Part shown: positions 4,463 through 38,245 of the stretch, in pieces | How the letters are laid out: every line of letters begins with the position of its first letter | How positions within the stretch are numbered: the first letter of the stretch is position 1 | Origin: Gammaproteobacteria bacterium | GTDB taxonomy: Bacteria; Pseudomonadota; Gammaproteobacteria; Eutrophobiales; Eutrophobiaceae | DNA: 64,000 bases | NCBI GenBank assembly: GCA_965221695.1 | Contig: OZ244905.1 | Span: 762,355-826,354 of the forward strand | Direction of reading: 5' to 3' | Notes under the pieces: model-generated | What the model was told of the DNA's origin: nothing | Database searches by the model: none | What the model saw: the letters and a program-made list of their open reading frames with translations, nothing else | Program-made: the position numbers and the translations under genes

Positions 4463-4492
4463 AATATCGATATTATTTATAATTGTTGTCAA
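4463..4492. promoter_or_regulatory. Putative operator/promoter element (site C): AATATCGATATT palindrome plus TTGTTGTCAA box, ~110-140 bp upstream of the Rieske oxygenase gene
   Basis: AATATCGATATT at 4463-4474 and TTGTTGTCAA at 4483-4492. Both boxes recur at 27814-27829 and 38187-38209. Confidence 0.5.
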
Positions 4493-4602
4493 TATATCAT
4501 CGCATAAGAATATAGCTTATTGATTTCATGGAATAAAGTAAACAGCATGGTAGTTATACTGAAGAACCATAGGGTGGCCTGATTAAGTAAGAGGGGATTA
4601 CA

Positions 4603-5727
4603 GTGTCAAAACCGTTTCTGAAAAATGCCTGGTATGCGGCGGCCTGGAGCTACGAGGTGAAAAAGGAATTGTTCGAACGTACCATCATCGGCGAATCGAT
4701 CCTGTTCTATCGCAAAGAGAACAACGAGGCGGTGGCCATCAACAACGCGTGCCCGCACCGCTATTCGCCGTTGCACCTCGGAACGCTGATCGGCGATGTG
4801 GTGGAATGCGCTTACCACGGATTGCGTTACGACAGCGGCGGGCGTTGCGTGCATAACCCCCACGGGGACGGCAAGATCCCGGAAAAGATGTGCACCCGGG
4901 CCTACCCGCTGGAAGAAACCCATAACATGTTATGGATCTGGATGGGCGACCCGTCGCTGGCCGATCCCGCAACGATTCCCGATTTCAGTTGCCATACCGA
5001 CGCTGACTACCCGTCCGTCCAGGGTGTAATTGAAATGCACGGCAACTACGAGCTGATCACCGATAACCTGATGGACCTGTCCCATGTCGAGTTCCTGCAT
5101 AAAGGCATACTCGGCAGCGATGCGATTAAACGCGGGCAACACGAACTGTTGCAGGACGGCACTACGGTGTGGTCCAACCGCTGGTGCCCGGACGGATTGG
5201 CGCCGCCGGCCTGGGACCACATGTTCAAGGACTACGGCAAGCCGGTTGACCACTGGTTATACATGCGCTGGGACGCGCCCAGCCACATGCTGCTGGACGT
5301 GGGCATCACCCCTACGGGCAGACCGCGCAGCGAAGGGATATGGATGTACGGCACGGACATTCTTACGCCTAAGAACCAGACCTCCACGTATTATTTCTGG
5401 GGCGTCGCCAGGGACCACGACAAGAACAGCGCGGAGATGGACAAAATCTGGACCACGGCCGTCGAGACAGCCTTCGGCACTCAGGACAAACCCATGATCG
5501 AAGCCCAGCAAGGCATGCTGGAAAATCTGGACGTCATCGATCTCGACGAAGTTGACCCGGTGTTGCTGCCCATGGACAGCGCCACGGTGCGCTGCCGGCG
5601 CGTGCTGGACCAACTGCGCCGTCAGGATGGCATCAAGCTTCCCGACCCCCGCAACCCGGCCCTGACGGACCTGGTCTGGAAAACGAATGCGGAGCAATAC
5701 CAAGGCATCGTAGAACCAGTGGTGTGA
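4603..5727 (+). CDS. Rieske [2Fe-2S] non-heme-iron oxygenase alpha subunit, VanA / phthalate-dioxygenase-like family (aromatic O-demethylase/hydroxylase type)
   Basis: 374 aa. Rieske motif CPHR...17 aa...CAYHG. Mononuclear-iron region with the DNLMDLSHVEFLH motif typical of VanA-like oxygenases. GTG start with a GAGGGG RBS. No reductase gene is adjacent. Confidence 0.85.
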   Translation: MSKPFLKNAWYAAAWSYEVKKELFERTIIGESILFYRKENNEAVAINNACPHRYSPLHLGTLIGDVVECAYHGLRYDSGGRCVHNPHGDGKIPEKMCTRAYPLEETHNMLWIWMGDPSLADPATIPDFSCHTDADYPSVQGVIEMHGNYELITDNLMDLSHVEFLHKGILGSDAIKRGQHELLQDGTTVWSNRWCPDGLAPPAWDHMFKDYGKPVDHWLYMRWDAPSHMLLDVGITPTGRPRSEGIWMYGTDILTPKNQTSTYYFWGVARDHDKNSAEMDKIWTTAVETAFGTQDKPMIEAQQGMLENLDVIDLDEVDPVLLPMDSATVRCRRVLDQLRRQDGIKLPDPRNPALTDLVWKTNAEQYQGIVEPVV

Positions 5728-5839
5728 AGGCCACCTACTCTGCCTGCGCGCGTACTTCGCGATTGATGCGTATCGCAGCCTACAGGCGGACGCGGAAAGA
5801 CATCGCGCAAGCCCTTGATCCGTAGGACTGGCGTCTCAA

Positions 5840-7435: not shown

Positions 7436-7486
7436 AGCATGTTGCCTGTTTCAGGACAGTAGCAAATCCGTTACACTGCGCTTGAA

Positions 7487-7978: not shown

Positions 7979-8035
7979 TGATCAGGGCACTGCGCAACGG
8001 TATGTGCCAGATGGAACAGGCCAGGGTATTCTCCA

Positions 8036-8134
8036 GTACCACTCCCGCGAAAGCGGGAGTCCAGTCAAATACTGTATCGCCCGAAGGGCGACCTCTTGAC
8101 CCACTGGATTCCCGTTTGCACGGGAATGGTACCG
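8036..8134. repeat. REP-like compound hairpin repeat, copy 1
   Basis: CTCCCGCGAAAGCGGGAGTCCAGTCAAAT + TGTATCGCCCGAAGGGCGAC + GGATTCCCGTTTGCACGGGAATGG. Near-identical modules recur at 12634-12813, 31402-31510, 36670-36838 and 62350-62460. Confidence 0.8.
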
Positions 8135-8162
8135 GGCATAGGTTACACAGCATATAGCTTGT

Positions 8163-17363: not shown

Positions 17364-18233
17364 TCAGCGGGTCGGCATCAGGCCCATGTCGAATTGCAGG
17401 TGGCTGAACGGCACCGGGATGTTGTAGCGGGCAGCCAGGCCGGCATCGTCGGATTGTTCATAATGGCCTATCAGCGAACTCTTGGTGGCGAACACCGCGT
17501 CTGAGTCCAGATACTCGTCGCCTTCCGAAAATACGTGCGTTGTCAGCGGCTCGTAACCGTCCGCAGAGACGATGAAATGGATATGGGCCGGGCGCATGCC
17601 GTGACGGCTGCTGGTTCGCAACAAATCACCAACCGGTCCGTCAGTGGGTATGGAATAGGATAGCGGTTTTTCCGTGACAAAAGCGTAATTGCCTTGCTCA
17701 TCCGTGGTGAAGATGCCGCGCATATTGTTCTCCGGCATGGTTTGATCCTGCACATCATACGTACCGTTCGCTGCGGTTTGCCAGATGTCCAGCTTTGCTC
17801 CCGCTATGGGATTACCGTCCGGGTCAGTCACCCTGCCCTGTACCAGCGCAATATCTCCACCATAATGCCGCTTGATGATGCTGGCGCCGTTTTCGTATTC
17901 CGGCGCGCCGGGCACGTAAAACGGCCCTAACACTGTGGACTCGGTGCCCTGGCCGGACTTGGGGTGGTTGATCGCATCAACCAGCATGGATACGCCCAGC
18001 ACGTCTGACAACAGGATAAATTCCTGGCGCTTATCGTCGCAGATCTGGCCTGTAGCGGTTAGGAACATGATGGCCTTGAACCATTCCTCTTCCGTCAACT
18101 CCACATCCTTGACAAACGCATGGAGGTGTTTGAGCAACGAGGTAATGATCTGCCTGAACCTTGGATCTTCTGTCTTGGAACCGTATTCTTCCAACACGAT
18201 TTCCGTCAGATTATCGATTGTAAAATCACGCAT
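17364..18233 (-). CDS. Intradiol ring-cleavage dioxygenase (hydroxyquinol 1,2-dioxygenase / catechol 1,2-dioxygenase family)
   Basis: 289 aa. Intradiol dioxygenase motifs GPFY, the Tyr/His iron-ligand region, and RPAHIHF. GGGGAGGAAATC RBS. Confidence 0.85.
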   Translation of the reverse strand: MRDFTIDNLTEIVLEEYGSKTEDPRFRQIITSLLKHLHAFVKDVELTEEEWFKAIMFLTATGQICDDKRQEFILLSDVLGVSMLVDAINHPKSGQGTESTVLGPFYVPGAPEYENGASIIKRHYGGDIALVQGRVTDPDGNPIAGAKLDIWQTAANGTYDVQDQTMPENNMRGIFTTDEQGNYAFVTEKPLSYSIPTDGPVGDLLRTSSRHGMRPAHIHFIVSADGYEPLTTHVFSEGDEYLDSDAVFATKSSLIGHYEQSDDAGLAARYNIPVPFSHLQFDMGLMPTR

Positions 18234-18252
18234 GATTTCCTCCCCGTGTAGT

Positions 18253-18309
18253 ATTCACATGGATGGACAGGATATACAGGATGCTGTCATGTCTTGCATC
18301 CTGTATATC
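18253..18309. repeat. Copy 2 of the 23-bp repeat, fused to a perfect 15-bp-arm hairpin (GGATATACAGGATGC-11nt-GCATCCTGTATATCC)
   Basis: Sits between the DUF1329 stop (18320) and the dioxygenase start (18233). No U-tract follows on the transcribed strand. Confidence 0.6.
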
Positions 18310-18319
18310 CATGTTAATC

Positions 18320-19618: not shown

Positions 19619-19688
19619 GTTTGTCCGCTAATCATTCTTCCGCAGATGATACAGGCTGGCGTAAATGAGTTTTACGGTCTTACACCCG

Positions 19689-21239: not shown

Positions 21240-21275
21240 TAAATATGACCTCTGTGATCTTTGTGTCCTCTGTGG

Positions 21276-23513: not shown

Positions 23514-23580
23514 TTCAATCAATCGCCAATGTTATGATTCGATGTTCGATAACGGGTTTGGATGCTGCCCCTGTTGATCT

Positions 23581-24174: not shown

Positions 24175-24277
24175 CTGTGCTGCTCCTTACGTCTGCCAAA
24201 GAGGGCACGAATGTCGCAGAGCAATCAAGTCAAACTCTGTGAATTCTGTACCCTCTGTGGCAATAAAATAAGTGATG

Positions 24278-25585
24278 TTACCTGCCGCTCTTGCGCAGGT
24301 TTTGCACCGTGAACATCTGCGGCGGGTTCAACGTGGGATCCAACTGGCCCTTGAACTGGCCGGTGGTGCAGTGTTTTGCCTGCACGTCATACATCATGAA
24401 GCAATTATCGATGGCGACGCCGGAACCCTTGTTACCGGGCAAGTGCCGGTCCGGATAGGCCTGGCAGATGGAAAACGACTTCCACAGGTCGCCCTTGCGG
24501 TCGAACTCGGCCTGGCGCGGAATGGTGTATGTCTGCGCATCGATATACATTACGCGCCGGCTCAACGGGTGATTCGGATCCTTCGGCGTCCCGTGCAGCT
24601 CATAGACCTTGCGCAGTTCCCAGGTGGTCTTAGGATAACAACCATCCACGTCAACGAACTGGTAACCATCGGGTTCGGGCGGCATATCGGTGGCCAGTTC
24701 CAGCTCGTCATGGTTATGGAACGGCAGAAAACCGTTCTTTGTGCCGATATACTCCCAGTTGTAGTCGGATACGCGGTTGTTGTAGCCTTCAAAGTCCTCG
24801 ATCATGATATCCGTGCCCAGGAATGCATCCGTCGTCTGCCCCGTGGCCAGACGCCGTACTCGCCGCTGGAAACCCAGGTACAGCCAGGCGTCATCCCGCT
24901 TCAGGTCGTTCTTGTAACGATGAATGAGAAGCTGGGTATTGGCGATATCAAACGGCTCCAGCGCGCGCACATAAATTGAGCGGAACAATTGCGCGGGATT
25001 GTCTTCAAACTCCGGAACCGGTTCCTGGTTCACCCGATGTTTCCAATTCAGGAAATGGAAGCTCCACTTGATAGTGCGTTCGAGCTTTCCTGATTTGGCG
25101 TTCCTGAACTTCCAGTAGAACGGCGAGATTGCGGCGTTATCGCCCCAGTTATAACCGTACTGGTAATTCCAGGCGACTTTCAGTCCAGCCTGGGGGTCAT
25201 TCACATCCGGTTCAGCAGGAAATGCCCGCCCGGCAACAAAATTATCCACCAGCCCATCCGCATTCAAGGATGGTTGATTGTTGACCGCTTCCATGGTTGC
25301 CTTGATATAGTTCGGGTGTAACTCCAATGATTCCGTTACCTTAGTCTGCAATGCCGTCTCACCGTTTTTGATATGGTCGTACAACGCCGGATCGAGAATC
25401 TCCTTGAACTGCTCCACGTTACCCTGGTCGATGACCATCCCGGGCGTGTATCCTGGAAACTCCGGTGTCCAGTTTTCATAAGGATAAAACGATTTCCTTA
25501 CATCTTCTTCGGTAAAATCGGCTGAGACCGCCAGGCTCAGGGCAACCAGCGGCATAACAGCGAGATACTTGACATACTTGAACAT
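24278..25585 (-). CDS. DUF1329-family secreted protein (paralog 2)
   Basis: 435 aa. Signal peptide MFKYVKYLAVMPLVALSLAVSA. Paralog of 18320-19618. Confidence 0.8.
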   Translation of the reverse strand: MFKYVKYLAVMPLVALSLAVSADFTEEDVRKSFYPYENWTPEFPGYTPGMVIDQGNVEQFKEILDPALYDHIKNGETALQTKVTESLELHPNYIKATMEAVNNQPSLNADGLVDNFVAGRAFPAEPDVNDPQAGLKVAWNYQYGYNWGDNAAISPFYWKFRNAKSGKLERTIKWSFHFLNWKHRVNQEPVPEFEDNPAQLFRSIYVRALEPFDIANTQLLIHRYKNDLKRDDAWLYLGFQRRVRRLATGQTTDAFLGTDIMIEDFEGYNNRVSDYNWEYIGTKNGFLPFHNHDELELATDMPPEPDGYQFVDVDGCYPKTTWELRKVYELHGTPKDPNHPLSRRVMYIDAQTYTIPRQAEFDRKGDLWKSFSICQAYPDRHLPGNKGSGVAIDNCFMMYDVQAKHCTTGQFKGQLDPTLNPPQMFTVQNLRKSGR

Positions 25586-25615
25586 AATAATTAAGCCTCC
25601 TTCCTGAAAATAGTG

Positions 25616-27769
25616 TTAGAAGCGATAGCGAATCAGAACTTGAAACTCGTCCTCGTGCTGCGCCATGCCGATGGGACCGGAACGGAATCGGCCCAGTGGT
25701 TCAAAACCCCTGCGGTCTCCGCAACTGGAACCCACAACATAGGGTTCGGTACAACCGGGGCCATTAGTAAACGGCGGAAATGCATTGGAAGTACGACCGT
25801 CATCCGCGACTCGGGCGCCGGTGCCCAACTTGATATTGGCGCCGAAGATCAAACGCAGGTTATCGTTGATCAGGTAGTCCACACCCGGGGCCACGACGGC
25901 CGCCTTGGCGCGAAAATCATACGCGGTGATAATTCGCGGCAGTACCCGGTCGTTCCTGAAGAAACCCTGGAACAGGAAAGTGCCGATATAACCATTCTTC
26001 CAGTCCTGGAAACCGATCTGCTGCCCGCTGATGGGATGACTGATTGATTTGTGATCAAGCAGGTGCTGGCCGAAAATCTGGGCCGACAGCAGGAAGGTCC
26101 TGTTCGGGTTCAACCAGCGGATATAGGTGGGGCGGTCCCAACCGATGACCCAGCGAATCACGTCTGATTCGGAATTCAGGTCAGATGCCGAGGTATCGGC
26201 AAACTCCTCGCCACTGGTATGGGCCAGTTCCACCCGGAACGCCGACTTCAGTGGATCAATGTAAAAGTCCGCCGAGCCGCCTATCAGGGTAACCCTTGGG
26301 AAGTGGATATCAAATGCCGGCACATATTGCCTGACCCGTTCAAGACCGGGCGTATCGGTAGGATCAAGCGGGCTGAAGCCCAACGGGCATCCGGCAAACG
26401 CCGGGCTCCACAGTCCCGGCGCAGGTGTAGTCGGTGGGCAACCCTGGGGTGGAATCAAGGTTCCCAGGAACGGGTTGACGCCTTCGATCTCGGCGCGTAA
26501 AGCCGGGAGTTGCGAATAAAATGTCATCGCGTTAAGCGAGAAACCCACGCCCCTGAACACACCTTCCAAACGCACCCCGCCCTGGTCGAAGTCCCAGCCG
26601 GGCAAGTGGATATCACGGATACCGATAACATGACGGGGGAAATCCGTTGCCAGGTTCCCATCCGGGGCAAGATGACCGGCAAAGTTATTGACGGTACACC
26701 CATTGTCCCAACAATTCTTCAGCGCCCGGAACAGGTCACCGGCAAGCAGGATATTGTAAGGCTGCCCGCCTTGACCCAGGTTGTTCGGACGGAATTTCTC
26801 GAAGTTCCAGATCACCTGGAAGTTCAGGTCATCAAAGGCGCCTACAGCGCCGGCACGGTACTCCGCAGAAAAGATCCCCAGCGGGATACGGCTGTCCTCG
26901 AACTCCTCGTAAATACTCTGGATAGAAAAATCGATCGGGTTGACCTGGTCCAGTACCCGAAACAGGTCGGTGCGGCCCCAGACCACCTGCTGGCGGCCGA
27001 TGCGGAAGTTGATCTCATCGCCGTTGTTGACCGGCATGGTCGCGTCAACGTAGATCTCCCGCAACCAACCATGGTCATCAGTGAATTCTGGAAAGCGCAG
27101 GTCGTCCAGGGTCGCATCCATATAACCGGGGATACAACCGCGGGGATCGACATCACAGGGCCGGGTCGGGGTAAACAGTTCCAACCCGCCGCCGTACTCA
27201 CCGTTATTGTTGCTGGCTGCAAGTTCGCCACCCACCCTTTTCAGTCCTTCATTGGGATTGACTGTGGTATCGAAACCAAAGCCTCCGCCCCCGGGCAGGG
27301 CCGGCACACCCGCAGAGACCGGTGAGAAGCCCCAGGGCGCATCCACGGTGGGATGATTTGTGAGTTCAGAAACATTGACCATTTGCAACTCGGCATCAGG
27401 ACCGAATCCGACCGGAAGATAGACCCCTGAACCGGAACTGGTGGTCGTGACCGGTCCTCCCGAACGCTTGCCAAAGGTATCGTCGTTCAGGTCGTAGACG
27501 CCATCATAGGTGGCTCGCAGGGTTCCATGAAAGGACAACTCGGAGAACAATCCCGTGGGCTTGAATATTTTCGACCACTCAATCTGACCGCGTATGCGTT
27601 CCTTGGTAATGCCGTAACTGTCACGGTGGTGGTAGGTGTTGTCGACAAAGCCGTGGATTGTCAGGGTGCCGTCACTCGAGTTCCACGCAGATACCGACAG
27701 TGGCGCGATGGCAACAGCGCCTGCGATCGCACTCGATAACAGGGTGAGAGAAAACCTGCGGATATTCAT
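25616..27769 (-). CDS. DUF1302-family outer-membrane beta-barrel protein
   Basis: 717 aa. Signal peptide ...AIAPLSVSA. C-terminal aromatic ...LIRYRF typical of OM barrels. Classical partner of DUF1329. Confidence 0.8.
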   Translation of the reverse strand: MNIRRFSLTLLSSAIAGAVAIAPLSVSAWNSSDGTLTIHGFVDNTYHHRDSYGITKERIRGQIEWSKIFKPTGLFSELSFHGTLRATYDGVYDLNDDTFGKRSGGPVTTTSSGSGVYLPVGFGPDAELQMVNVSELTNHPTVDAPWGFSPVSAGVPALPGGGGFGFDTTVNPNEGLKRVGGELAASNNNGEYGGGLELFTPTRPCDVDPRGCIPGYMDATLDDLRFPEFTDDHGWLREIYVDATMPVNNGDEINFRIGRQQVVWGRTDLFRVLDQVNPIDFSIQSIYEEFEDSRIPLGIFSAEYRAGAVGAFDDLNFQVIWNFEKFRPNNLGQGGQPYNILLAGDLFRALKNCWDNGCTVNNFAGHLAPDGNLATDFPRHVIGIRDIHLPGWDFDQGGVRLEGVFRGVGFSLNAMTFYSQLPALRAEIEGVNPFLGTLIPPQGCPPTTPAPGLWSPAFAGCPLGFSPLDPTDTPGLERVRQYVPAFDIHFPRVTLIGGSADFYIDPLKSAFRVELAHTSGEEFADTSASDLNSESDVIRWVIGWDRPTYIRWLNPNRTFLLSAQIFGQHLLDHKSISHPISGQQIGFQDWKNGYIGTFLFQGFFRNDRVLPRIITAYDFRAKAAVVAPGVDYLINDNLRLIFGANIKLGTGARVADDGRTSNAFPPFTNGPGCTEPYVVGSSCGDRRGFEPLGRFRSGPIGMAQHEDEFQVLIRYRF

Positions 27770-27813: not shown

Positions 27814-27840
27814 AAAATATCGATATTTTTTCATTATAGC
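27814..27840. promoter_or_regulatory. Putative operator/promoter element (site A): AAAATATCGATATTTT perfect palindrome followed by TTTTTTC...TTATAGC, 45-70 bp upstream of the DUF1302 start
   Basis: 16-bp perfect palindrome. The ATATCGATATTTTTTC(N)TTATAGC string is shared with site B (38200-38245). The core is shared with site C (4463-4474). Confidence 0.5.
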
Positions 27841-27933
27841 CTCTTTATTCGCCATTACCATGAATATTTTTTGGGCGGGGACAGGACGTGCCTGTCTCCA
27901 CCTATTGCATAATGATTCCCCAATTCCTCGCTG

Positions 27934-30333
27934 TCAGTCCATGTCAATCTCATCGATCATCGAACCAGTGCCTTTTTCCCAGCGCTCCTCTCCAGCCTTC
28001 ATGATGAATTTCGGCTTGAAAATGTTCACCCAGGCTGGCACCAGGAACATCGCAGACGCCATGTTCATGATCAGCATGATGATAAGCAGGCGGGCCGCGT
28101 CCGCCTGGAAACGCAATTCGGAAATGAACACCCACATGATAATTCCGCCCACCAGGGTCGTAGCAGTCAGCGCAATGGCAACGCCGGTGGTGCTGACCGC
28201 GCGCCGGATCGCGTCCTGCACATTGTCGGCTACATGCATCTCCTCCTTGATGCGGTCCATCATGTAAATCGCGTAATCCACCCCAAGACCGATACCCACG
28301 GCTATCATCGGCACGGTATTGACGTTCAGCCCCATGTTCAGCAATCCCATGCAGGCATAGGTGAGCGTGGTGGCGAAGGTCATGGATACCAGCATCATGA
28401 AGCCGGAGTGGAACGAACCGTAAAACCAGAGAGTAAACGCCAGGATCAGCACCAATACCGCGGGCACGACGATGACATTGGTCTCAAAAGCCTCTTCGTT
28501 GATGGCCGCGGTCACCCCGACCGGGCCGCCTGCCAGGTCGATGTGCAGCCCCTCAATCCGGCTGCCGGTTGTATCTATCCATTCCTTGGCCATGTGGATC
28601 GCGCGCCGTATGGTCTCGCCTGTATGGTCCTTGTAATAGAACACCATGTTGGCCAGCCGGTCATCGGTATCGATATATTCCAGCAATGCGCCCTGGGTCG
28701 GCGCCGACATCATAAACATGAACAGCAGCCCGCCGATATTCTGGTCGATGGACGGGATCACCGCCCAACGCGGGTCATTGTTGCGAGTCATCTGGTTCAC
28801 CTGGGTCAGCAGGTTGTTGACCCCCTTCACACCGCCCAGTTTCGGGTCCAACAGCATGTGGTTCTGGAAATCCGCCAACGCTTTCATGATCTCCGGTTTT
28901 TTCAAACCACCTATTTCATCGGCGCGGGCAATGATGAACAGTTCCTCCGCTCCCGGAAAACGTTCATTGATCGCAGTGGATGAAACATTGAAATCATGGT
29001 CGTGATAGAGCAACGGTGAGCCCGGTTCCGGTTCCCCGATCTGCACCCAGGAACTGAAATACGTCGCGCAAAGAGCAATGATGAGACAGGTAATGAGCAC
29101 CGCTTTCGAACGTCCCCTGGTACCGACAACCTGGGCAAACTTGGGAAAGATCGCCCGCGCCAGGGTATGCTTGACGGCCACATCTTTGGGCCTTGGCAGT
29201 TCCGCCAGCAGCATCGGGATCACGATCAGCACGGTGACCACCATGCAGACCGCCCAGAACGACGCGTAAATGGCCATCTTGTCATTAATCGGCACCGAAC
29301 CCAAGCCGATGAGGTACAGCGCGGAGGCATCCGCAACGATGGCCAGCGCGCCGGGCCTGAACAACGCGTTGAAGGTGTTTCGGGCCGCTGGCACCTTCTC
29401 GCCGGTGCGCGACAACTCAAGGAAATAGCGTTCCATTTTCTGGATGCCGTGGGACATGGCGCGCGCAGAGATCAGAAACGGCACCACCAGCATCAGCGGA
29501 TCCAGGTTATAACCGAACACCCCCATGAAACCCACACCCCAGATACTGGTCAGGATCATGCCCAGCAACGGCAGCAGGATACCGTAAAGCCGGCGCGAGT
29601 AGAAAACCAGGATGCCCAGTACGATCAATATGGTATAGAAGAAGATGAGTAGGATATCGCCACTGTAGGAATCCACCCAACCCACCAGCACCGGGTGGCC
29701 GGTGGCGTGGATTTTCACTCCCGGCGCGGCCTCTTCCGCCCGGATCGCCTGGATTTCCTCAAACACCTTGCCGTAATCGAGCTGGCCTTCATTTAAGGTG
29801 CCCTTGATCAAGGCCGCTTTCATGTCCGGCGAAACCAGCAATCCGTAGACATTGGTACTGGCCAGCACGTCCCGTTGAATCTGCGCCAGTTGTTCTTCCG
29901 TGTATTCTTCGTGGTGCGGGTCGTAATAGTTCTGCGAACGGATGGTGCCATCCGGAGTCAGGAAGATCTTCCTGGTGTTGCGGTGGGTCAGGCTGGTCAC
30001 CAGGTTGTGGTTGATATTGGACACGCTGTCCAGCTTTTGGGTAATGCGGTGAATCCGGTCGAGGGCATCATTCGTGAAGATCGTCCCCTCCTCCACTTCC
30101 ATCGCCATGACGATGATATTGGCCCCGCCGAACGTATCGCGGATACTGTTATGCAGTTGTATGTACGGGTGTTCCTGGGGCAACAGGTCGGCAAAGTCCG
30201 AGAGCATGCGCACGGTGGGAATATTCCAGGCAAACATCGCGGTAATCAGGAATATCAGCGCCAGCACGAATTTCCGGTTGTTGAACAGGAAATTACCGAA
30301 TACCGGAAAAATCTGGCTGGTATCTAGTTTCAT
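27934..30333 (-). CDS. RND-superfamily exporter (MMPL/COG1033-like, two 6-TM bundles)
   Basis: 799 aa. Two hydrophobic multi-TM blocks separated by large soluble loops. Overlaps the upstream Ycf48-like gene by 4 nt. Confidence 0.8.
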   Translation of the reverse strand: MKLDTSQIFPVFGNFLFNNRKFVLALIFLITAMFAWNIPTVRMLSDFADLLPQEHPYIQLHNSIRDTFGGANIIVMAMEVEEGTIFTNDALDRIHRITQKLDSVSNINHNLVTSLTHRNTRKIFLTPDGTIRSQNYYDPHHEEYTEEQLAQIQRDVLASTNVYGLLVSPDMKAALIKGTLNEGQLDYGKVFEEIQAIRAEEAAPGVKIHATGHPVLVGWVDSYSGDILLIFFYTILIVLGILVFYSRRLYGILLPLLGMILTSIWGVGFMGVFGYNLDPLMLVVPFLISARAMSHGIQKMERYFLELSRTGEKVPAARNTFNALFRPGALAIVADASALYLIGLGSVPINDKMAIYASFWAVCMVVTVLIVIPMLLAELPRPKDVAVKHTLARAIFPKFAQVVGTRGRSKAVLITCLIIALCATYFSSWVQIGEPEPGSPLLYHDHDFNVSSTAINERFPGAEELFIIARADEIGGLKKPEIMKALADFQNHMLLDPKLGGVKGVNNLLTQVNQMTRNNDPRWAVIPSIDQNIGGLLFMFMMSAPTQGALLEYIDTDDRLANMVFYYKDHTGETIRRAIHMAKEWIDTTGSRIEGLHIDLAGGPVGVTAAINEEAFETNVIVVPAVLVLILAFTLWFYGSFHSGFMMLVSMTFATTLTYACMGLLNMGLNVNTVPMIAVGIGLGVDYAIYMMDRIKEEMHVADNVQDAIRRAVSTTGVAIALTATTLVGGIIMWVFISELRFQADAARLLIIMLIMNMASAMFLVPAWVNIFKPKFIMKAGEERWEKGTGSMIDEIDMD

Positions 30334-31319
30334 GATTTATCTCCCACCAGTTCCTGAGCTGAAAAAATTTCCAATACGCCTGCGGGTCCGCTCACGATCA
30401 AGCGCTGATCGGGTAACGGCATGATCCCGCGCAGGTACTGGCGGAACGGCCGGCCATGATCGAACGGCAACCACCTGTCTCCATCCAAACGGAAAATGCT
30501 GCCTTCACCACCGGTGACAAACAACTGGCCGTTGGCTTTTGCCAGCGTATACAATGTCACCAGGCTGCCGGTAGCTTGTGTCTCCCAGGTCTCTCCGCCA
30601 TCGTCCGTAGCCAGGACCACGCCGCCCAGGCCGGCGATCCAGCCCCGGTTCGGATCCTCAAAATACATGCTTTGCGGATAAAACTCGTCCGGCATCGGCG
30701 GCATGAATTCCCAGTTGGAGCCGGCATCGGCGGTTTTCAGCAAAGTGCCGAACTCGCCGGCGATATAGATGTTCTGATCATCGAAAAACTGGATGTCCGT
30801 AAAAATAATATCCTCATCCAGGGAGGTTACGTCCCAACTCACGCCGCCATCCCGGCTGACCGAGATGGTGGAAAAGCTGCCTACCACCCACAGGTTGCCG
30901 GCAGGGTCACACTGTATGGCCTGGGGCGCCTCCTCGGTCGCGAGTTGGCTCCTGTTCCAGCTCTCACCCTGGTCGTTCGACAGCCATACTTCACCTTCAA
31001 AGGCCAGCGCGGCAAACAGGCCACCGGCGCAACTGGTAATGTCCAGGAACGCCGGCCAGGAAGGGATTTGATAGCGTTGCCAGCTCGCGCCATCGTCTTG
31101 TGACGACAGGATGACACCACCGGAGCCGACTGCGACGATATTTTGCTGAAATGCACTGACGGCCTGGAAATTGTCGGTCCTGCGAATCGGGTTTTGCAGG
31201 GCTTTCTCGACCTCATCCAGCACCAACGGCGACTCGCAAGCGGATGCCAACACGCAGGCCACAGCCAACAGCCAGCGGCTTGCAAACCGGGCGCTCTCTT
31301 TGATGTAATTATTATTCAT
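30330..31319 (-). CDS. Ycf48-like BNR/Asp-box repeat lipoprotein (photosystem II stability/assembly-factor homolog)
   Basis: 329 aa. Lipobox LASAC. Four SxDxGxSW-type Asp-box repeats (SQDDGASW, SNDQGESW, SRDGGVSW, TDDGGETW, TADAGSNW). Confidence 0.8.
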   Translation of the reverse strand: MNNNYIKESARFASRWLLAVACVLASACESPLVLDEVEKALQNPIRRTDNFQAVSAFQQNIVAVGSGGVILSSQDDGASWQRYQIPSWPAFLDITSCAGGLFAALAFEGEVWLSNDQGESWNRSQLATEEAPQAIQCDPAGNLWVVGSFSTISVSRDGGVSWDVTSLDEDIIFTDIQFFDDQNIYIAGEFGTLLKTADAGSNWEFMPPMPDEFYPQSMYFEDPNRGWIAGLGGVVLATDDGGETWETQATGSLVTLYTLAKANGQLFVTGGEGSIFRLDGDRWLPFDHGRPFRQYLRGIMPLPDQRLIVSGPAGVLEIFSAQELVGDKS

Positions 31320-31401
31320 GTTTCCCCTAAATTAACCCTCATAAACAGCGCGCTGCGCATCCTGGCCGCATGTAATTGTTGACATAATCCAAATCACGCC
31401 C

Positions 31402-31510
31402 CCGTACCACTCGTGCGAAACACCACCTTACCACTCCCGCAAAACACCAACTTACCACTCCCGCGAAAGCGGGAGTCCAGTCAATTACTGTGTCGCCCGC
31501 AGGGCGACCC
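31402..31510. repeat. REP-like compound hairpin repeat, copy 3
   Basis: CCACTCGTGCGAAACACC, CCACTCCCGCAAAACACC, CCACTCCCGCGAAAGCGGGAGTCCAGTCAATTACTGTGTCGCCCGCAGGGCGACC. The ~50-nt core is nearly identical to 8041-8095. Confidence 0.8.
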
Positions 31511-31523
31511 GTTATTATAGTTT

Positions 31524-32312
31524 TCAAACCATCCGAAAACTGACCTTCCCCAAGTCCTGGAAGCGCACATTGATCGTATCGCCTTTGTCCAGAGCAACCG
31601 CCGCCGTGATTCCCCCGGTCATTATGAACGTCCCTGCGGGTATGGTCTCACCGCGCGCAGCCAGCATGTTCGCCAGCATCGCCACGCTCAGGGCAGGATG
31701 CCCCAACACTGCGGCGCCGGCGCCGGTCTCAACCACTTCTCCGTTTTTCTCCATCACCACCCCAAGGGCCGGCAAGTCCAGGGAGTCCGCGCCACGCAAG
31801 ACACTGCCGACGACAAAGCCTGCGGCGGAAGTATTATCGGCAATGACGCTCTTCAGGTCAAAACGAAAATTTTCATAGCGGGAATCGATGATCTCCAACG
31901 CCGCCGTAACAAAATCAACGGCTTGCAATACCTGGCCGATATGGCATCCGGGACCGGCCAGTTCCGCTTTTGTCACGACAGCCACCTCCGCTTCCACGCG
32001 CGGGTGGATAAACGCTGAGCAGTCAATCTCAGCGCCATCGGCGTAACCGCCGGTAGCAGGCAGGAAACCGTATACCGGATCGGACACCCCCATCTGCCGC
32101 ATCTTGGCCTGGGAGGTCAGGCCCATTTTCAGGCCGGCGATGCGGATGCCGCGTTCTTCTTTGCGCCGGCGGATCTCGTACTGGATGGCGTAGGCGTCCT
32201 CCCAGTCCAGTTCCGGGTAGTCATCGGTAATCTTCGTTACCGCTTGCCGGTTGAGTTCGGCATTCTCCAGCCGCTCGGCCAGTTGCCTGATGGTTTTTTG
32301 ATCCAGCGTCAT
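31524..32312 (-). CDS. 4-oxalocrotonate decarboxylase (XylI/DmpH-like)
   Basis: 262 aa. Collinear high similarity to XylI ([10 protein letters not shown]...GLKMGLTS...[21 protein letters not shown]...[27 protein letters not shown]). Position at the end of the meta operon. Confidence 0.85.
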
Positions 32313-33349
32313 TGCACTGCCTTTATTTCACGCCGCGCCCGCGCCATGTTCAGCGCAACGTCTTCGATCATGTCTTCCTGGCCGCCGATGGTCTTCATCT
32401 TCCCCAGCTCGACCAGGATGTCGCCCGAAGGCAGCTTGTATTTTTCACCGACGCGCTTCGCGTGCAGCAGGAACGAAGAGTAGACACCGGCATAACCCAT
32501 GATCAACGAGTCACGGTCGACCCGGATCAACTGGTCCATTATCGGCACCACCACATCTTCCGCAACGTTCATCAATTTGAATACATCCACGCCGGTTTTG
32601 ACGCCCATGCGGTCCAGCACCGCGTTGAACACCTCAAGCGGCGTGTTGCCGGCGCCGGCGCCCAGCCCCGCGGCGGAACCGTCAATCCGGTCGGCGCCCG
32701 CTTCGACTGCGGCCAGTGAATTGGCAATGCCCATTGCCAGGTTATGGTGCCCGTGAAAGCCAATCTCGGTATCGGCTTGCAGGCCGGCGCGCAATGCCCC
32801 GATGCGGGCCGTGACATCATCCGGCAGCATATAGCCGGCAGAATCGGTGCAGTAAATGCAGTTGGCGCCATAGGATTCCATCAATTTGCCCTGTTCAAGC
32901 AACTGTTCCGGTTCCACCATATGCGCCATCATCAGGAAACCGACGGTATCCAGGCCCAGTTTTCGAGCTGAACTGATATGTTGTTCCGAGACATCCGCCT
33001 CGGTGCAATGGGTCGCGACGCGGATGGTATGGACTCCACAATCCCGCGCCATGTTCAAATGATCCACGGTGCCGATACCCGGCAACAGCAAGGCCGACAC
33101 ATTTGCCTGCTTCATACGCGGCGTGACCGCTTGCAGGTACTCTTCATCGGAGCTGGCAGGAAAGCCGTAATTGATGGAGGCGCCACCCAGGCCATCGCCA
33201 TGGGTCACTTCGATAAGGTGGACGCCTGCGTCATCCAGCGCGGAAGCGACATCGATCATCTGCTCAGTCGTGATCTGGTGGCGCTTGGCATGCATCCCGT
33301 CGCGCAGGCACATATCATGCAGTTTTACTGTTTTTCCGTTTAGATTCAT
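32309..33349 (-). CDS. 4-hydroxy-2-oxovalerate aldolase (DmpG/MhpE/BphI-like)
   Basis: 346 aa. DRE-TIM N-terminus [13 protein letters not shown]...[13 protein letters not shown]. 4-nt overlap with the decarboxylase gene. Confidence 0.9.
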
Positions 33350-33392
33350 GGTGTTGTTGTATCAGTTTCGACTTGATCGCTGTTTTGTGGGG

Positions 33393-34301
33393 CTAAGCGT
33401 TGGCCGCATCCAGGCGCAATGCGCCGTTGATGATTTCTTCCGCGAACATCTCACCGGTTCGCAGCGCCGCGGCGGTCATGATGTCCAGGTTGCCCGCGTA
33501 ATCCGGCAGGTAATCTCCCAGACCCTTCACCTCCATGAAGATGGAGACGCGCCGGCCGTCGAATACCGGGCCGTTTTTCAATTGGTAGCCGGGCACGTAC
33601 TTCTGCACTTCCCGGATCATGTCGTGGACGGATTTGCGGATAGCATCCTGGTCGGGATCGTCCTGCGTCAGGCAATGGATGGTGTCGCGCATGATCAGCG
33701 GGGGTTCAGCAGGGTTGAGGATGATGATGGCCTTGCCGCGTCCGGCGCCGCCTACCCGTTCCAGCCCGTTGGCCGTGGTGCGGGTGAACTCATCGATATT
33801 CTTGCGGGTGCCCGGGCCGGCGGATTTCGACGCGACAGTCGCCACGATCTCTGCGTATTCCACCGGTTGTACCCTGCTTACCGCGGCTACCATCGGGATT
33901 GTCGCCTGGCCACCGCAACTGACCATGTTCACGTTGGTCTCCTGTTTGCCGACATGTTCCTGCAGGTTTACGGGCGGCACACAATACGGGCCGATGGCAG
34001 CCGGCGTCAGGTCGATGACCAGCACACCCCGTTGTTCCAGCTTCCGGGAGTTCTCCGGGTGGACCGAGGCAGAGGTCGCATCGAAGGCGATCCTGATACC
34101 GTCTTTTTCAATATGTTCGAGCAACGCATCCACGCCTTCGTGGGTGGTCTTCAGGCCGCTCGCGCCGGCCTTTGCCAGGCCGTCCGAGTTCGGGTCGATT
34201 CCCACCATCCACACCGGGTTGATGCGATCACTGCGCAGCGCCTTTATCATCAGGTCCGTGCCGATATTGCCGGAACCGACCAAAGCAGCATTAACTTTCA
34301 T
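33393..34301 (-). CDS. Acetaldehyde dehydrogenase (acetylating) (DmpF/MhpF/BphJ-like)
   Basis: 302 aa. [27 protein letters not shown]-binding start. Catalytic Cys region [12 protein letters not shown]. Confidence 0.9.
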
Positions 34302-34327
34302 ATTCAGTTTACCCCTGTCCTCTATCC

Positions 34328-35119
34328 TCAGTTGAACCGCACCGATGCGTTGCCGATTCCGCCGACAGCCAGGGTCATTACATCTCCGGGCACGACGGGG
34401 TGCAGCGGCACCAGGGAACCGGACAGGATCACTTCACCCGCTTCCAGCTTGATACCGAACTCGCCCAGGGTGTTCGCCAACCAGGCCACACAGTTTACTG
34501 GTGAACCCAGCGCCGCGGCGCCGGCGCCGGTGGCGATAACTTCACCATTTTTGGTATGTACCATGCCGCAGGTCACCAGGTCCACGGCGCGCGGGCTCAC
34601 GGCCCGATCTCCGAGCAGGAACGCCCCGCAGGACGCGTTATCGGCAATGGTGTCTTGTATCTTTATCTTCCAATCCTGAATACGGGAATCCACGATTTCA
34701 AAACAGGGCATCACACATTCCGTGGCGCGCAGCACCTCGGCATTGGTGATACCCGGACCATCCAGGTCGTGTTTCAGGATGAACGCGATCTCACCCTCTG
34801 CCCTGGGCTGGATCATTTCCGCGCTGATGGGTACTTCGTCGCCGTCGTTGTAGACCATGCGGTCGGTCAGGTAACCGAAGTCCGGCTGGTTGACCTGCAG
34901 CATATTCATAACCGCCTTGCTAGTAACACCAATCTTCTTGCCGATGATTTTCTCGCCGTCATCCAGGCGCCGTTGCAGTAATTGCAGCGAAATGCGGTAG
35001 GAGTCCTCAATGGTGATATCCGGTTCCTGGTCTGTCAGTGGCTCGATGGTCTTGCGCGCGCGCAGGCAATCGTACAAGGTATTGCCATAAGACAGTATTT
35101 TTTCTTCAGTCAGGCTCAT
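34328..35119 (-). CDS. 2-oxopent-4-enoate hydratase (XylJ/DmpE/MhpD-like)
   Basis: About 263 aa from the ATG at 35119. Close similarity to XylJ ([28 protein letters not shown]...[47 protein letters not shown]). Confidence 0.85.
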
Positions 35120-35148
35120 TATTTCTGTCACAGTGTCGGATTGAATTC

Positions 35149-36639
35149 CTACAGTTTCACACACACGTTGCGCATCTCGGTGTAGAACTCAAGTGAGTGT
35201 ACACCACCTTCGCGGCCTATGCCCGATTGTTTGGAGCCGCCGAACGGAGTCCTGAGATCGCGCAGGAACCAGCAGTTGACCCAGGTGATGCCGACATCAA
35301 TGGCGGCGGCGACCCGGTGCGCGCGGGATGCATTCCCGGTCCAGATCGCCGTTGCCAGGCCGTAGCGCGTGTCATTGGCCATCGCAATCACTTCGGCCTC
35401 ATCGTCAAAAGGCTGTACATGGCAGCAAGGACCAAAGATCTCCTCCCGGATGACCGGCGATGATTCAGGCAGGCCCGTCCAGATGGTCGGTTCCACCCAG
35501 AAGCCGCCGGCCAGATCGTCGTGCACTTGCGGAATACCGCCGCCGGTTACGACCTGCGCGCCCTCTTCCCTGGCCTTTTCATAGTAGGACAGCACTTTTT
35601 CCCGCTGCTGCCGGCTAATCATCGGCCCCAGAGTGGTGGTTGCCAGTTCCGGCTTGCCGGTTGCCAGGTTTTCGGCGCCCAGTCTGAGCCGGTCCACGAA
35701 TTCATCGAATACCGGGCGCTCCACGTAAACCCGTTCCGTTCCCAGGCAGACCTGGCCGCAGTTGGCGAATACCGAACGCATGGCCCCTTCCAGGGCCTTG
35801 TCCATATCGCAGTCGGCAAACACCACGCCCGCGTTTTTGCCGCCCATTTCAAAGGAGACATCGCGCAGCCCTACGGCTGCGGCTTTCATGATTTGCGAAC
35901 CGGTGGTTGTCTCACCGGTAAACGTGATCGCGTCCACGCCCTGGTGCGTGGTCAGGTACTCGCCGGCAGATTCCGGCCCGAAACCATGCACGACATTGTA
36001 TACGCCAGCGGGAATACCCACCGCATTCATCACCTCACCCAACAGGGTCGCGGTCGCCGGAGTCTCTTCGGACGGCTTGACCACGACCGCATTACCACAG
36101 GCCAGCGCCGGACCGACCTTCCAGGTCATCAGTAACAGCGGCAGGTTCCAGGGACAGATCACGCCGATGACCCCCTTGGGCACGCGCAGCGCATAATTCA
36201 ATGCGCCGGCGCCGTCCGGCGTGTCCATCATGAAGGATTCCGCCGGCACATTCTTGATCACATCGGCAAATATCTTGAAATTGGCCGCGCCCCGGGGTAT
36301 ATCCACATGCCGCGCGAGCGACCAGGGCTTGCCGGTATCAAGACACTCCGCTTCGACAAAATCATCGAACCTGGCGTTGATGCCATCGGCCAGCTCATAC
36401 AGTAAAGCCACGCGTTGCTCTACGGTCAGTGAACCCCAAGGGCCTTCGAGAGCGGCCCGCGCCGCTTCGACTGCCGCATCGACTTCATCACGACCCGCTT
36501 CATGGACCTGCGCATAGGCCTCCCCCGTCACCGGGTTCAGCGTGTCAAACATTCTGCCGCCGGCAGATCCGACAAACTCGCCGCCGATAAAATGGCAGAA
36601 CGGCGACCCGGATACAACCTGTTTTACTTGAGCATGCAT
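35149..36639 (-). CDS. 2-hydroxymuconic semialdehyde dehydrogenase (XylG/DmpC-like NAD+ aldehyde dehydrogenase)
   Basis: About 496 aa from the ATG at 36639 (GGAG RBS). ALDH motifs and XylG-like segments PDGAGALNYA, VICPWNLPLLLMTWKVGPALACGN, FGGSKQSGIGREGG, C-terminal ...EFYTEMRNVCVKL. The track ORF is over-extended to 36666. Confidence 0.88.
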   Translation of the reverse strand: MHAQVKQVVSGSPFCHFIGGEFVGSAGGRMFDTLNPVTGEAYAQVHEAGRDEVDAAVEAARAALEGPWGSLTVEQRVALLYELADGINARFDDFVEAECLDTGKPWSLARHVDIPRGAANFKIFADVIKNVPAESFMMDTPDGAGALNYALRVPKGVIGVICPWNLPLLLMTWKVGPALACGNAVVVKPSEETPATATLLGEVMNAVGIPAGVYNVVHGFGPESAGEYLTTHQGVDAITFTGETTTGSQIMKAAAVGLRDVSFEMGGKNAGVVFADCDMDKALEGAMRSVFANCGQVCLGTERVYVERPVFDEFVDRLRLGAENLATGKPELATTTLGPMISRQQREKVLSYYEKAREEGAQVVTGGGIPQVHDDLAGGFWVEPTIWTGLPESSPVIREEIFGPCCHVQPFDDEAEVIAMANDTRYGLATAIWTGNASRAHRVAAAIDVGITWVNCWFLRDLRTPFGGSKQSGIGREGGVHSLEFYTEMRNVCVKL

Positions 36640-36669
36640 TTTTTTCTGACTCCTATTACACCCCAATAT

Positions 36670-36838
36670 TATTCCCGCTTAAGCGGAAAGCCAGCTAACA
36701 AAGTATCGCCTGTCAGGCGATACGCTATCATACTGGACTCCCGCTTACGTGGGAGTAGTACGAGCATCGCTCCTACTCCAGTACCATTCCCGCGAAAGCG
36801 GGAATCCAGTGAAACAAACCGTCGCTTCAGCGACACTA
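36670..36838. repeat. REP-like compound hairpin repeat cluster, copy 4 (fills the HMSD-GlcG intergenic region)
   Basis: TTCCCGCTTAAGCGGGAAAG, GTATCGCCTGTCAGGCGATAC, CTCCCGCTTACGTGGGAG, TTCCCGCGAAAGCGGGAATCCAGTGAAAC, CGTCGCTTCAGCGACACTAT. Confidence 0.8.
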
Positions 36839-36840
36839 TA

Positions 36841-37269
36841 TTATTCCGGGGCCAAATACCCCAGCGCATATTCGGCTATTTCCCCATCCTGTTGTTCCGA
36901 AGCGCCGGAAACGCCTATCGCGCCGATACGGCGCCCGCCAATCTCAATCGGCGCCCCACCACCACAAACCATCAACCGGTCAGCATTGGGGAGACCGATT
37001 CTGCACGCCGGCGACAGGGAATCCAATACTTCTCCCCATTTCGATGTCGGCATGCCGAAACTCATAGCCGTGTAAGCCTTGTTGATCGCCAGGTCAACGG
37101 AATGAAACGCCGAACCCGGCATGCGCAAAAACGCGGCAAGATGCCCGCCGCTGTCCACTACTGCGACATTGACTTTCACGCCTAACTCCTCCGCCCGCGT
37201 TACCGCAGCCTGAACCAGTGCGTGAGCCGCTTCCCAGTGGATGCTGCCCTGATCTACCACCACTTTCAT
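36841..37269 (-). CDS. GlcG/HbpS-family (DUF336) haem-binding-like protein
   Basis: 142 aa. Family-typical length and the pattern ...AVVDSGGHL.AF.RMDGA...A..KA.TA... 4-nt overlap with the upstream GST gene. Confidence 0.65.
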   Translation of the reverse strand: MKVVVDQGSIHWEAAHALVQAAVTRAEELGVKVNVAVVDSGGHLAAFLRMPGSAFHSVDLAINKAYTAMSFGMPTSKWGEVLDSLSPACRIGLPNADRLMVCGGGAPIEIGGRRIGAIGVSGASEQQDGEIAEYALGYLAPE

Positions 37270-38054
37270 CTGTTCAGATGCGCTTGTATCTTGCGCCAGG
37301 GGGCCTGCCCCTTGTGCTTGAGTTCAGCCATTTTTTCCGCAGAAAAATCAGCCGCGACCCCAACCTGGTAAGACGGCCGGTCAACGCAACGCGCATACCA
37401 GTCAGCGACCCGTTTGCGCGACTGGTACCAGTCTGCCCAGCCGAATTGGAACAGGGTTTGAAAATACGGGGACATGGCCGCGTCCGCCAGCGAGAACCGA
37501 TCGCCCGCAAGCCAATCCTGGGTTTCCAGCGTGCGTTCCATGTCGGCAATGGTCTTCTCGTAGGTCGCCACTGCGTCGACGATATCGGGCGCATCATAGC
37601 CCATCTTCAGCAGCCGCCTCTGCCGCTCTCGCCGGGGTTTCTCGACAACCCGGTCAATGACAGCATTCATCTCCGCTTCTGAAAGCATTTTGAGCTTGTC
37701 CGCCATAACCAGCGGCCATTGCAACGCGCCGCAACTCGGGTGCACCTTGATGTCAATGTGTTTCATCCACAGACGCATCTGCGCGCTATGGTAGGGATTG
37801 TCCGGACGCATATCCGGTTCAGGAAACTTGTCCTGCAGGTACTCGCAGATGATGGAGGATTCGATTACCGACCTGCCATCGTCGACCAGGGTCGGCACCA
37901 CGCCCAACGGGTTCAGCTTGAGATAGTCCGGCGCAAGATTTTCCTTCTCCGCCAGTTCCACGTGACGCTTTTCCCAATCCAGGTCTTTTTCTGCCAGTAC
38001 GATGCGCACCTTCTGCGAACAGGGCGACATGGGATGAGTGTATAATTCAAGCAT
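37266..38054 (-). CDS. Glutathione S-transferase-family protein (Cys-containing N-terminal thioredoxin-like domain)
   Basis: 262 aa. N-terminus LELYTHPMSPCSQKVRIVLAEKDL (GST_N with an active-site-region Cys). C-terminal alpha-helical GST_C-like domain. Confidence 0.75.
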   Translation of the reverse strand: MLELYTHPMSPCSQKVRIVLAEKDLDWEKRHVELAEKENLAPDYLKLNPLGVVPTLVDDGRSVIESSIICEYLQDKFPEPDMRPDNPYHSAQMRLWMKHIDIKVHPSCGALQWPLVMADKLKMLSEAEMNAVIDRVVEKPRRERQRRLLKMGYDAPDIVDAVATYEKTIADMERTLETQDWLAGDRFSLADAAMSPYFQTLFQFGWADWYQSRKRVADWYARCVDRPSYQVGVAADFSAEKMAELKHKGQAPWRKIQAHLNR

Positions 38055-38186
38055 TATGGGTTCGCCTCATCGTTATCGTCATCGTTAATTCCTGCGGCCC
38101 GCGCGTATGTTCTTCGGGCTTATGTTCTTGGCGCTTGTGCTGCCAGTGGATTGCATCTGATATTATGGATATAATTTATTTTATCG

Positions 38187-38245
38187 TTGTTGTCAAATAA
38201 TATCGATATTTTTTCGTTTTGTCGATATTTTTTTATAGCATATTG
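38187..38245. promoter_or_regulatory. Putative operator/promoter element (site B) in the GST <-> GntR divergent region: TTGTTGTCAA + AATAATATCGATATTTTTTC + GTCGATATTTTTTTATAGC
   Basis: TTGTTGTCAA at 38187-38196 (its reverse complement contains TTGACA for the minus-strand operon). ATATCGATAT at 38200-38209. A second TCGATATTTTTTT at 38222. TTATAGC shared with site A. Confidence 0.5.

Follow-up and report, generated by a model that had tools for sequence, protein, structure and literature searches.

AphS and BphS are GntR repressors of the phenol and biphenyl meta-cleavage genes, and the operator they share was described by Suvorova and Gelfand in 2019 as AwATATCGATATwT, refined to AAATmTCGAkATTT (PMC6449761), a paper we reached by a full-text search for TATCGATA together with GntR. 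Our subject is a palindrome of this form that recurs in a stretch of 64 kb from the genome of an uncultured gammaproteobacterium (contig OZ244905.1 of assembly GCA_965221695.1, positions 762,355 to 826,354), which we call the window. The copies of this palindrome are very probably the operators of an AphS/BphS-type repressor, a GntR protein with an FCD domain that is encoded in the same window at 38334-39014. The case is one of sequence comparison throughout.

A good deal is known about the two namesakes. Several sites per region imply cooperative binding in the AphS/BphS family, and the published BphS site pair of Polaromonas Pnap_4153 lies at -115 and -96, 19 bp apart (PMC6449761). AphS, the repressor of phenol degradation in Comamonas testosteroni TA441 and a predicted one in many Betaproteobacteria, is invariably encoded together with the sigma-54 activator AphR, as an aphRS operon, and governs a multicomponent phenol hydroxylase; dual control of the aph genes, by AphS, AphR and AphT, is frequent in Betaproteobacteria (PMC6449761). 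Predicted AphS targets also include DUF1302, PF07044 (DUF1329), COG1033 (an MMPL-type exporter) and COG4447 (BNR), for example in Dechloromonas aromatica (PMC6449761). The hosts we took to represent BphS are Acidovorax/Pseudomonas sp. KKS102, Tn4371, Burkholderia xenovorans LB400 and Polaromonas CJ2. In KKS102, overlap of operator and promoter leads to repression, and the meta-cleavage product HOPD releases BphS (reviewed in PMC10282184). A third point of comparison is CsiR/GlaR, the glutarate-responsive FCD-GntR repressor of Escherichia coli and Pseudomonas putida, the sites of which read A(A/G)AAATCTAGA(C/T)ATTTT in Pseudomonas and TTGTN5TTTT or ATGTN5TTTT in E. coli (bioRxiv 10.1101/557751).

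How does the window compare? As with BphS, a stand-alone FCD-GntR adjoins a meta-cleavage aromatic operon, and the likeness extends to the operator palindrome, to several boxes in one region, to a 19-bp pair and to a predicted overlap with promoters. The differences are ones of host and content. The window regulator is approximately 45 to 49% identical to the Betaproteobacteria homologs examined, its host is an uncultured gammaproteobacterium, and the window has no bphA biphenyl dioxygenase or HOPDA hydrolase; what it has is a DdmC-like Rieske oxygenase, an NpRdhA-like dehalogenase, an HpaB protein and an intradiol dioxygenase. With AphS, the window shares the motif, the protein subfamily and the DUF1302/PF07044/COG1033/COG4447 genes predicted as targets in D. 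aromatica. Unlike an AphS locus, it shows no AphR-type sigma-54 activator and no multicomponent phenol hydroxylase among the scanned open reading frames of at least 100 amino acids, which makes its organization BphS-like and not that of AphS proper.

The palindrome and the adjacent GntR regulator

In the window there are three exact copies of the 12-mer AATATCGATATT, at 4463-4474, 27816-27827 and 38199-38210, and no others. All three copies are intergenic: one lies 5' of a Rieske oxygenase gene (site A), one 5' of a DUF1302 gene (site B) and one in the gap between divergent GST and GntR genes (site C). The palindrome is real and highly non-random. Exact copies turned up in none of 150 simulations under a first-order Markov null, and the number of near matches observed was reached by none of 100 dinucleotide shuffles. 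We also scanned the window with a weight matrix whose training sites came exclusively from genomes outside it, the site of one plasmid homolog (pPHE24, below) being kept out. The four highest scores, again all intergenic, fell on a box at site C (C1, 28.7), on those at B (28.0) and A (24.2) and on a second box at site C (C2, 16.3); the best score over 200 block shuffles had a mean of 13.3 and a maximum of 23.5. C2 is a degenerate fourth box, TTTTGTCGATATTT at 38217-38230, found 19 bp from the third palindrome.

In their 14-nucleotide operator forms the boxes read AAATATCGATATTA (A), AAATATCGATATTT (B), TAATATCGATATTT (C1) and TTTTGTCGATATTT (C2). Set against AAATmTCGAkATTT, boxes A, B and C1 agree with the published AphS/BphS consensus at 13 to 14 of the 14 positions. 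The invariant part of the motif is the CG-containing core TCGA inside ATATCGATAT, and the motif stands upstream of no other gene among the approximately 50 in the window. An earlier note on this DNA had named a generic AT-rich sequence, common at unrelated promoters, as the alternative; in the window the exact copies are confined to sites A, B and C.

The regulator gene (38334-39014, plus strand; 226 amino acids) encodes an AphS/BphS-family homolog and predicted repressor, with a Pfam GntR domain at residues 12-70 (E 1.2e-18) and an FCD domain at residues 80-205 (E 8.6e-22). A homolog search with this protein returned nothing bearing the name AphS or BphS, so membership of the subfamily was tested through an AphS defined by its context. 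This was P0280 of Verminephrobacter eiseniae, located in an aphR-aphS/phenol-hydroxylase locus, to which the window protein is 45% identical over 218 residues (E 2e-58). Both published AphS sites of the V. eiseniae locus, AAATCTCGATATTT and AAATATCGAGAATC, were recovered there. By tblastn, three plasmid homologs with 45 to 49% identity were found in bph/aph contexts: one on Paraburkholderia pBN2 (our locus label L015), near a hydrolase, a ring-hydroxylating dioxygenase and a catechol 2,3-dioxygenase; one on a Simplicispira plasmid (L017), near a hydrolase and the lower meta pathway; and one on an Ideonella plasmid (L018), where a sigma-54 regulator is followed by the GntR gene, divergent from phenol hydroxylase, in the canonical aphRS arrangement. 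TCGA-core boxes are present in the relevant intergenic regions of all three. A search of the Protein Data Bank (PDB) with the GntR protein gave unnamed or unrelated FCD regulators only, and nothing relevant was found in the literature on entry 7XP0.

The best NCBIfam model match of the window protein is in fact to CsiR/GlaR, and the CsiR/GlaR operator resembles ours in having an A-tract, a short palindromic core and a T-tract, with multiple sites overlapping the promoter. Box C2 (TTGTCGATATTTT) even fits the TTGTN5TTTT form from E. coli. The cores differ, however, CTAGA in the one and TCGA in the other. We rejected the idea of a CsiR/GlaR ortholog: the score against NF008576 is 164.1 bits against a cut-off of 218, and the protein is closer to those of AphS/BphS contexts, the identity with E. 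coli GlaR/CsiR being 39%. There are no csiD/lhgO/gab or glutarate hydroxylase genes in the window.

Orthologs of the GntR protein (L001 to L007) were also found when it was searched against species-representative genomes, an eighth (L012) being reached through DUF1302. L001 is 98% identical to the window protein, L002 to L004 are 81 to 82% identical and L005 to L007 46 to 51% identical; L001 to L007 are all metagenome-assembled genomes of Gammaproteobacteria or Pseudomonadota. In all eight, across 46 to 98% identity, two to three TCGA-core boxes lie directly 5' of the gene, and a meta-cleavage lower-pathway operon diverges from the gene across a gap that contains the boxes, as in the window. 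Box pairs read, for example, TTATCGATATT...TTATCGATATT in L003 and AATATCGATTT...GTATCGATGT in L005. Spacing is 19 bp in seven of the eight and 14 bp in L007. Counting plasmid pBN2 as well, 19-bp centre-to-centre pairing is found in the window and in L002, L003/4, L005, L006, L012 and L015, over protein identities of 49 to 98%. In the window there are two boxes in the divergent region of the regulator itself; sites A and B have one each. The earlier note had picked out the divergent FCD-GntR as the likely regulator, a choice that the paired boxes upstream of every ortholog and the match to the AphS/BphS consensus argue for. Two side observations belong here: in L005 the boxes upstream of the regulator gene are tripled, and 19 bp is a non-integral number of helical turns.

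Could another regulator, global or encoded elsewhere, bind the palindrome, leaving the adjacent GntR a bystander or a mere target? We think this improbable, though it is the best of the alternatives. Its appeal is that our view is restricted to 64 kb, that L012 has a TetR gene within its cluster and that the aph genes of Betaproteobacteria often answer to more than one regulator. Yet paired boxes accompany all the GntR orthologs over 46 to 98% identity, boxes also occur with the Betaproteobacteria homologs in unrelated contexts, the motif is the published consensus of the GntR's own protein family, and the window contains neither a TetR gene nor a sigma-54 activator. The other regulators in the window are an extracytoplasmic function (ECF) sigma factor, two HicB antitoxins and an M78/IrrE-like protein; apart from these the GntR is the sole one.

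Three promoters and their genes

Site A belongs to the Rieske oxygenase. Box A, a predicted AphS/BphS-type operator at 4462-4475, contains the 12-bp perfect palindrome and fills the 17-bp spacer 5' of a TATAAT (4478-4483, plus strand) that we read from the sequence as the -10 of the predicted Rieske promoter. The gene that follows (4603-5727, plus strand) encodes a VanA-family protein with Pfam Rieske and VanA_C domains, and its closest solved structure is the dicamba O-demethylase DdmC (PDB search, E 3e-74). Three orthologs with 86 to 90% identity (L009, L010 and L011) retain the box at the equal promoter position: their promoters run (T)TGAAA/TGGAAA, then AAAATATCGATATT(A/T)TT, then TATAAT. 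The L009 promoter is of the sigma-70 type, TTGAAA-N17-TATAAT, with the box occupying the 17-bp spacer. Between the window and L010/L011 the identity of the Rieske intergenic region is limited to 22 bp (4462-4483), that is, to box plus TATAAT. The Rieske gene lies 23 kb away from the cluster in the window, and where gene and cluster share a contig in a relative (L009/L014) they are approximately 25 to 30 kb apart, as in the window. The earlier note had placed this distant gene in the same regulon, and the box kept upstream of its orthologs points the same way.

A Fer2 [2Fe-2S] ferredoxin (3303-3581, minus strand; 94% identical to that of L010 by tblastn) probably supplies the Rieske oxygenase with electrons. 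In L010 and L011, the genes for the [2Fe-2S] ferredoxin and the Rieske oxygenase are divergent and approximately 118 bp apart, with the operator region in common, and the pair fits, by analogy, a three-component DdmABC-like system. In the window, a toxin-antitoxin cassette of hicA (3937-4140, minus strand) and hicB (3606-3953, minus strand) is inserted between the ferredoxin gene and the Rieske operator. A consensus TTGACA on the minus strand (4492 to 4487) is oriented toward the ferredoxin gene and hicAB, and the divergent promoter under operator control may therefore have come to drive the cassette.

Site B carries the perfect 16-bp palindrome AAAATATCGATATTTT at 27814-27829, as the earlier note had it. 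Its 12-bp core lies 47 to 58 bp upstream of the DUF1302 start (27769). The box begins 5 nucleotides downstream of a TATAAT (27833-27838, minus strand), read from the sequence as the -10 of the predicted DUF1302-operon promoter, and would therefore overlap the expected start of transcription. It is kept in DUF1302 orthologs from L012, L013, L014 and L022 (86, 81, 75 and 67% identity, respectively), reading ATATCGATAA in L013. There the -10 is TATAAT in L012 and L014, TACAAT in L013 and TATAGT in L022, followed by 4 to 5 nucleotides and then the box.

Behind box B lies a predicted operon (17364-27769, minus strand) of genes on a single strand with gaps of 30 to 103 bp, assigned by Pfam, NCBIfam and PDB matches. 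In order, these are DUF1302 (25616-27769, minus strand; Pfam), DUF1329, a DsbA-like protein, the NpRdhA-like dehalogenase, an HpaB-family monooxygenase, a second DUF1329 and an intradiol dioxygenase. The order recurs in L013 and L014, its first part only in L012 and L022. The reductive dehalogenase homolog (21276-23522, minus strand; 748 amino acids) scores 209 bits against TIGR02486 (cut-off 160) and matches PDB entry 4RAS (E 8e-176), the oxygen-tolerant NpRdhA, the E value for 4RAS/6ZXU being approximately 1e-176. This protein sits in an aerobic aromatic-catabolism operon, beside an HpaB-type monooxygenase and an intradiol dioxygenase, and does so in L012 to L014 and L022 as well. Between the end of the MMPL gene and box B there is also a GC-rich inverted repeat, GGGGACAGGACGTGCCTGTCTCC, at 27870-27905. 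The T-run ahead of it on the plus strand is a trailing A-run on the coding (minus) strand. For the minus-strand operon the repeat does not have the canonical form of an intrinsic terminator.

Site C faces both ways. Box C1 (38198-38211) is conserved in L001, L002 and L012 and present as variants in L003 to L007; C2 has its centre 19 bp away. On the minus strand, C1 abuts a TTGACA (38191-38196) that we read as the -35 of the predicted GST/meta-pathway promoter, TTGACA-N17-TATATC. This hexamer is retained in L001, L002 and L012 and absent from L003/4. On the regulator's strand, a TATAAT (38170-38175, plus strand) lies 5' of both boxes, within GGATATAAT, which is conserved in the window, L001, L002 and L012 and reads GGTATAAT in L003. 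The GntR promoter probably has this TATAAT as its -10. In L002 approximately 10 bp separate the end of box C2 from the start codon, so that the GntR promoter must be upstream of the boxes; the boxes would then lie in the transcribed leader, which implies autoregulation by roadblock. The window and L001 have approximately 95 extra bp between C2 and the GntR start (38230-38334) relative to L002 (9987-10001), and the start codon itself is TTG in the window and ATG in L002.

The genes divergent from the regulator form one or more predicted operons (27934-38054, minus strand; Pfam and NCBIfam, with synteny in L001 to L007 and L012 to L014): GST, an HbpS-like protein, 2-hydroxymuconic semialdehyde dehydrogenase (assigned by TIGR03216), a hydratase/decarboxylase, acetaldehyde dehydrogenase, HOA aldolase, a BNR/Ycf48-like protein and an MMPL/RND exporter. 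On the other side, a TonB-dependent receptor gene (39035-41329, plus strand; Pfam) starts 20 bp 3' of the GntR gene and is probably co-transcribed with it; the pairing is kept in L001 to L004. Further on, two blocks look like strain-specific islands, both absent from L002 to L004, where the TonB receptor and HicB2 are followed almost at once by an M24 peptidase. The first (41344-45130) encodes a VIT-VWA protein, two unknown proteins and the ECF sigma factor; the second (46145-57525) two unknown proteins, the type I restriction-modification proteins HsdM/S/R, the M78/IrrE-like protein and a DUF4411 protein.

A predicted repressor circuit and its rivals

The palindrome is conserved at all three promoters in relatives, the phylogenetic footprint that the earlier note had proposed looking for. 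At the Rieske and DUF1302 orthologs the box keeps a fixed promoter position while the flanks have diverged, which argues for the common regulator that the note had supposed. Taken together, the comparisons strongly support the note's central idea of one regulon, with the divergent GntR as regulator and the Rieske gene as a member. We infer a simple circuit. Each box of 14 to 16 bp, with TCGA as the core of the consensus AAAATATCGATATTTT, would bind a repressor dimer. Bound at the Rieske gene, the dimer would sit between the -35 and the -10; bound at the DUF1302/dehalogenase operon, where the box starts 5 nucleotides past the -10, it would cover the transcription start; in the GST-GntR region it would find two boxes 19 bp apart, C1 against the meta-pathway -35 and both in the regulator's own leader. 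Occupancy would block RNA polymerase at all three sites, and the positions (in a spacer, over a predicted start, beside a -35) are consistent with repression. By analogy with BphS, which the ring-fission product HOPDA releases, the repressor would leave its sites in response to an intermediate of the pathway, here presumably an aromatic acid or a product of ring cleavage. The predicted regulon would comprise the DdmC-like O-demethylase (plus its ferredoxin in relatives), the DUF1302/DUF1329 and RdhA-HpaB-dioxygenase operon, the GST, lower meta-cleavage and BNR/MMPL operon, and the GntR-TonB receptor pair.

Several observations weigh against this account. When the three regions were scanned for consensus promoters, the AT-rich DNA yielded hexamer pairs that were ambiguous or in conflict, so we relied on conserved -10 hexamers, and the promoter geometry given here comes from these only; the -35 elements of site A, in the window, and of site B are poor. 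The motif scan covered 64 kb of a genome of approximately 3.5 Mb, and the regulon is accordingly that of the window. Subfamily membership was judged against V. eiseniae AphS and the plasmid homologs. The box is absent 5' of two further Rieske homologs in other gene contexts, L020 (80% identity) and L021 (70%); because of these we take the Rieske gene to have joined the regulon in one clade only, that of 86 to 100% identity. Finally, one plasmid homolog does not conform: L016 has AAAATATATATTTTT, which has no TCGA core, where the TCGA-core box is expected. It may represent diverged operator specificity within the AphS/BphS subfamily. The locus itself (Pseudomonas fluorescens plasmid pPHE24, 7782-8019) has a 47%-identical FCD-GntR divergent from an mhp-like meta-cleavage cluster.

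The earlier note had described two boxes shared by the three promoters. The palindrome is indeed at all three; the second box, TTGTTGTCAA, is missing from site B and occurs exactly in the window at 1537, 4483 and 38187. Is it nevertheless a second operator of the regulon promoters, for a co-regulator or a second GntR contact? Three exact copies stand against approximately 0.11 expected, a nominal over-representation for a word chosen post hoc, and two of them are less than 20 bp from the palindrome. With one mismatch allowed the enrichment disappears: seven copies against 3.55 expected, a count reached by 8 of 100 shuffles. Between sites A and C the word changes both its orientation and its distance relative to the palindrome, and the Rieske orthologs L009 to L011 have no conserved copy of it at their 5' side. 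At site C only its TTGACA hexamer is kept in relatives, without the 4-nucleotide extension (TTGCTGTCAA in L002, GGATGTCAAA in L012). Six of its ten bases are the minus-strand -35 consensus. We therefore rejected it as a shared second box and hold a second operator to be very unlikely; the word is best read as two minus-strand TTGACA -35 hexamers, one of the GST promoter and one of the promoter facing hicAB and the ferredoxin gene. The third copy (1537-1546) lies elsewhere, right after the stop of an open reading frame at 1155-1535 and 60 bp before an ABC-transporter ATPase gene, with no palindrome near it.

Two details of the earlier note need moving. The TTGACA -35 it assigned to site B belongs to C (GST operon, 38196 to 38191) and to A (4492 to 4487), and the string ATATCGATATTTTTTC...TTATAGC that it gave as common to A and B is common to B and C. 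As part of the element, or as a GntR -10, TTATAGC/TATAGC was rejected; it is missing in L001, for all its 98% identity, and in L002.

That the motif is a generic AT-rich feature of the UP-element kind, a chance repeat or a leader RNA hairpin is scarcely credible: the intergenic DNA is AT-rich, A/T tracts flank the box and transcripts from sites B and C would include it, but the null models yield none, the invariant core contains CG, no other window gene has the motif upstream, orthologous positions are conserved where flanks diverge, the site A box lies in a promoter spacer and so would not be transcribed, and the RNA would have only six A-U pairs around a 4-nucleotide loop (reasoned, not fold-calculated).

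Regulon content and what it may mean

The palindrome and its probable AphS/BphS-type repressor are an instance of an operator-repressor family already described, and they bring no new regulatory principle. Their added value lies in the predicted content of the regulon: a DdmC-like O-demethylase, an NpRdhA-type dehalogenase, ring-cleavage genes and a DUF1302 module, in uncultured gammaproteobacteria. The O-demethylation of a methoxylated halo-aromatic, which the earlier note had offered as an example, finds indirect support in the DdmC match and in the NpRdhA-type dehalogenase operon.

One can go further, with due caution. A speculative reading, which we rate as possible and no better than that, is that a clade of uncultured gammaproteobacteria, probably living in association with sponges, has taken an AphS/BphS-type repressor into service for a dedicated aerobic regulon that handles natural methoxylated and brominated aromatics, with a halogenated or ring-fission intermediate as inducer. 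Names such as RHO3_bin_19, ROBB21 and PANK22 may point to sponge metagenomes. The regulon would bring together the DdmC-like O-demethylase and its ferredoxin, the oxygen-tolerant NpRdhA-type dehalogenase, the HpaB-type hydroxylase, the ring-cleavage enzymes and an envelope module of DUF1302, DUF1329, MMPL and BNR proteins. If true, it would amount to a one-protein sensor for organobromine turnover in sponge holobionts.

Closer to the data, the regulator and its 16-bp operator make a candidate biosensor for the inducing intermediate. The predicted AphS/BphS control of DUF1302/DUF1329/MMPL/BNR genes would be extended from the Betaproteobacteria to the Gammaproteobacteria. An anonymous palindrome becomes a named and testable switch, with a defined predicted regulon, for an uncultured marine gammaproteobacterium. 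And the shared operator argues, as annotation by co-regulation, that the O-demethylase, the aerobic dehalogenase operon and the meta-cleavage lower pathway act together.

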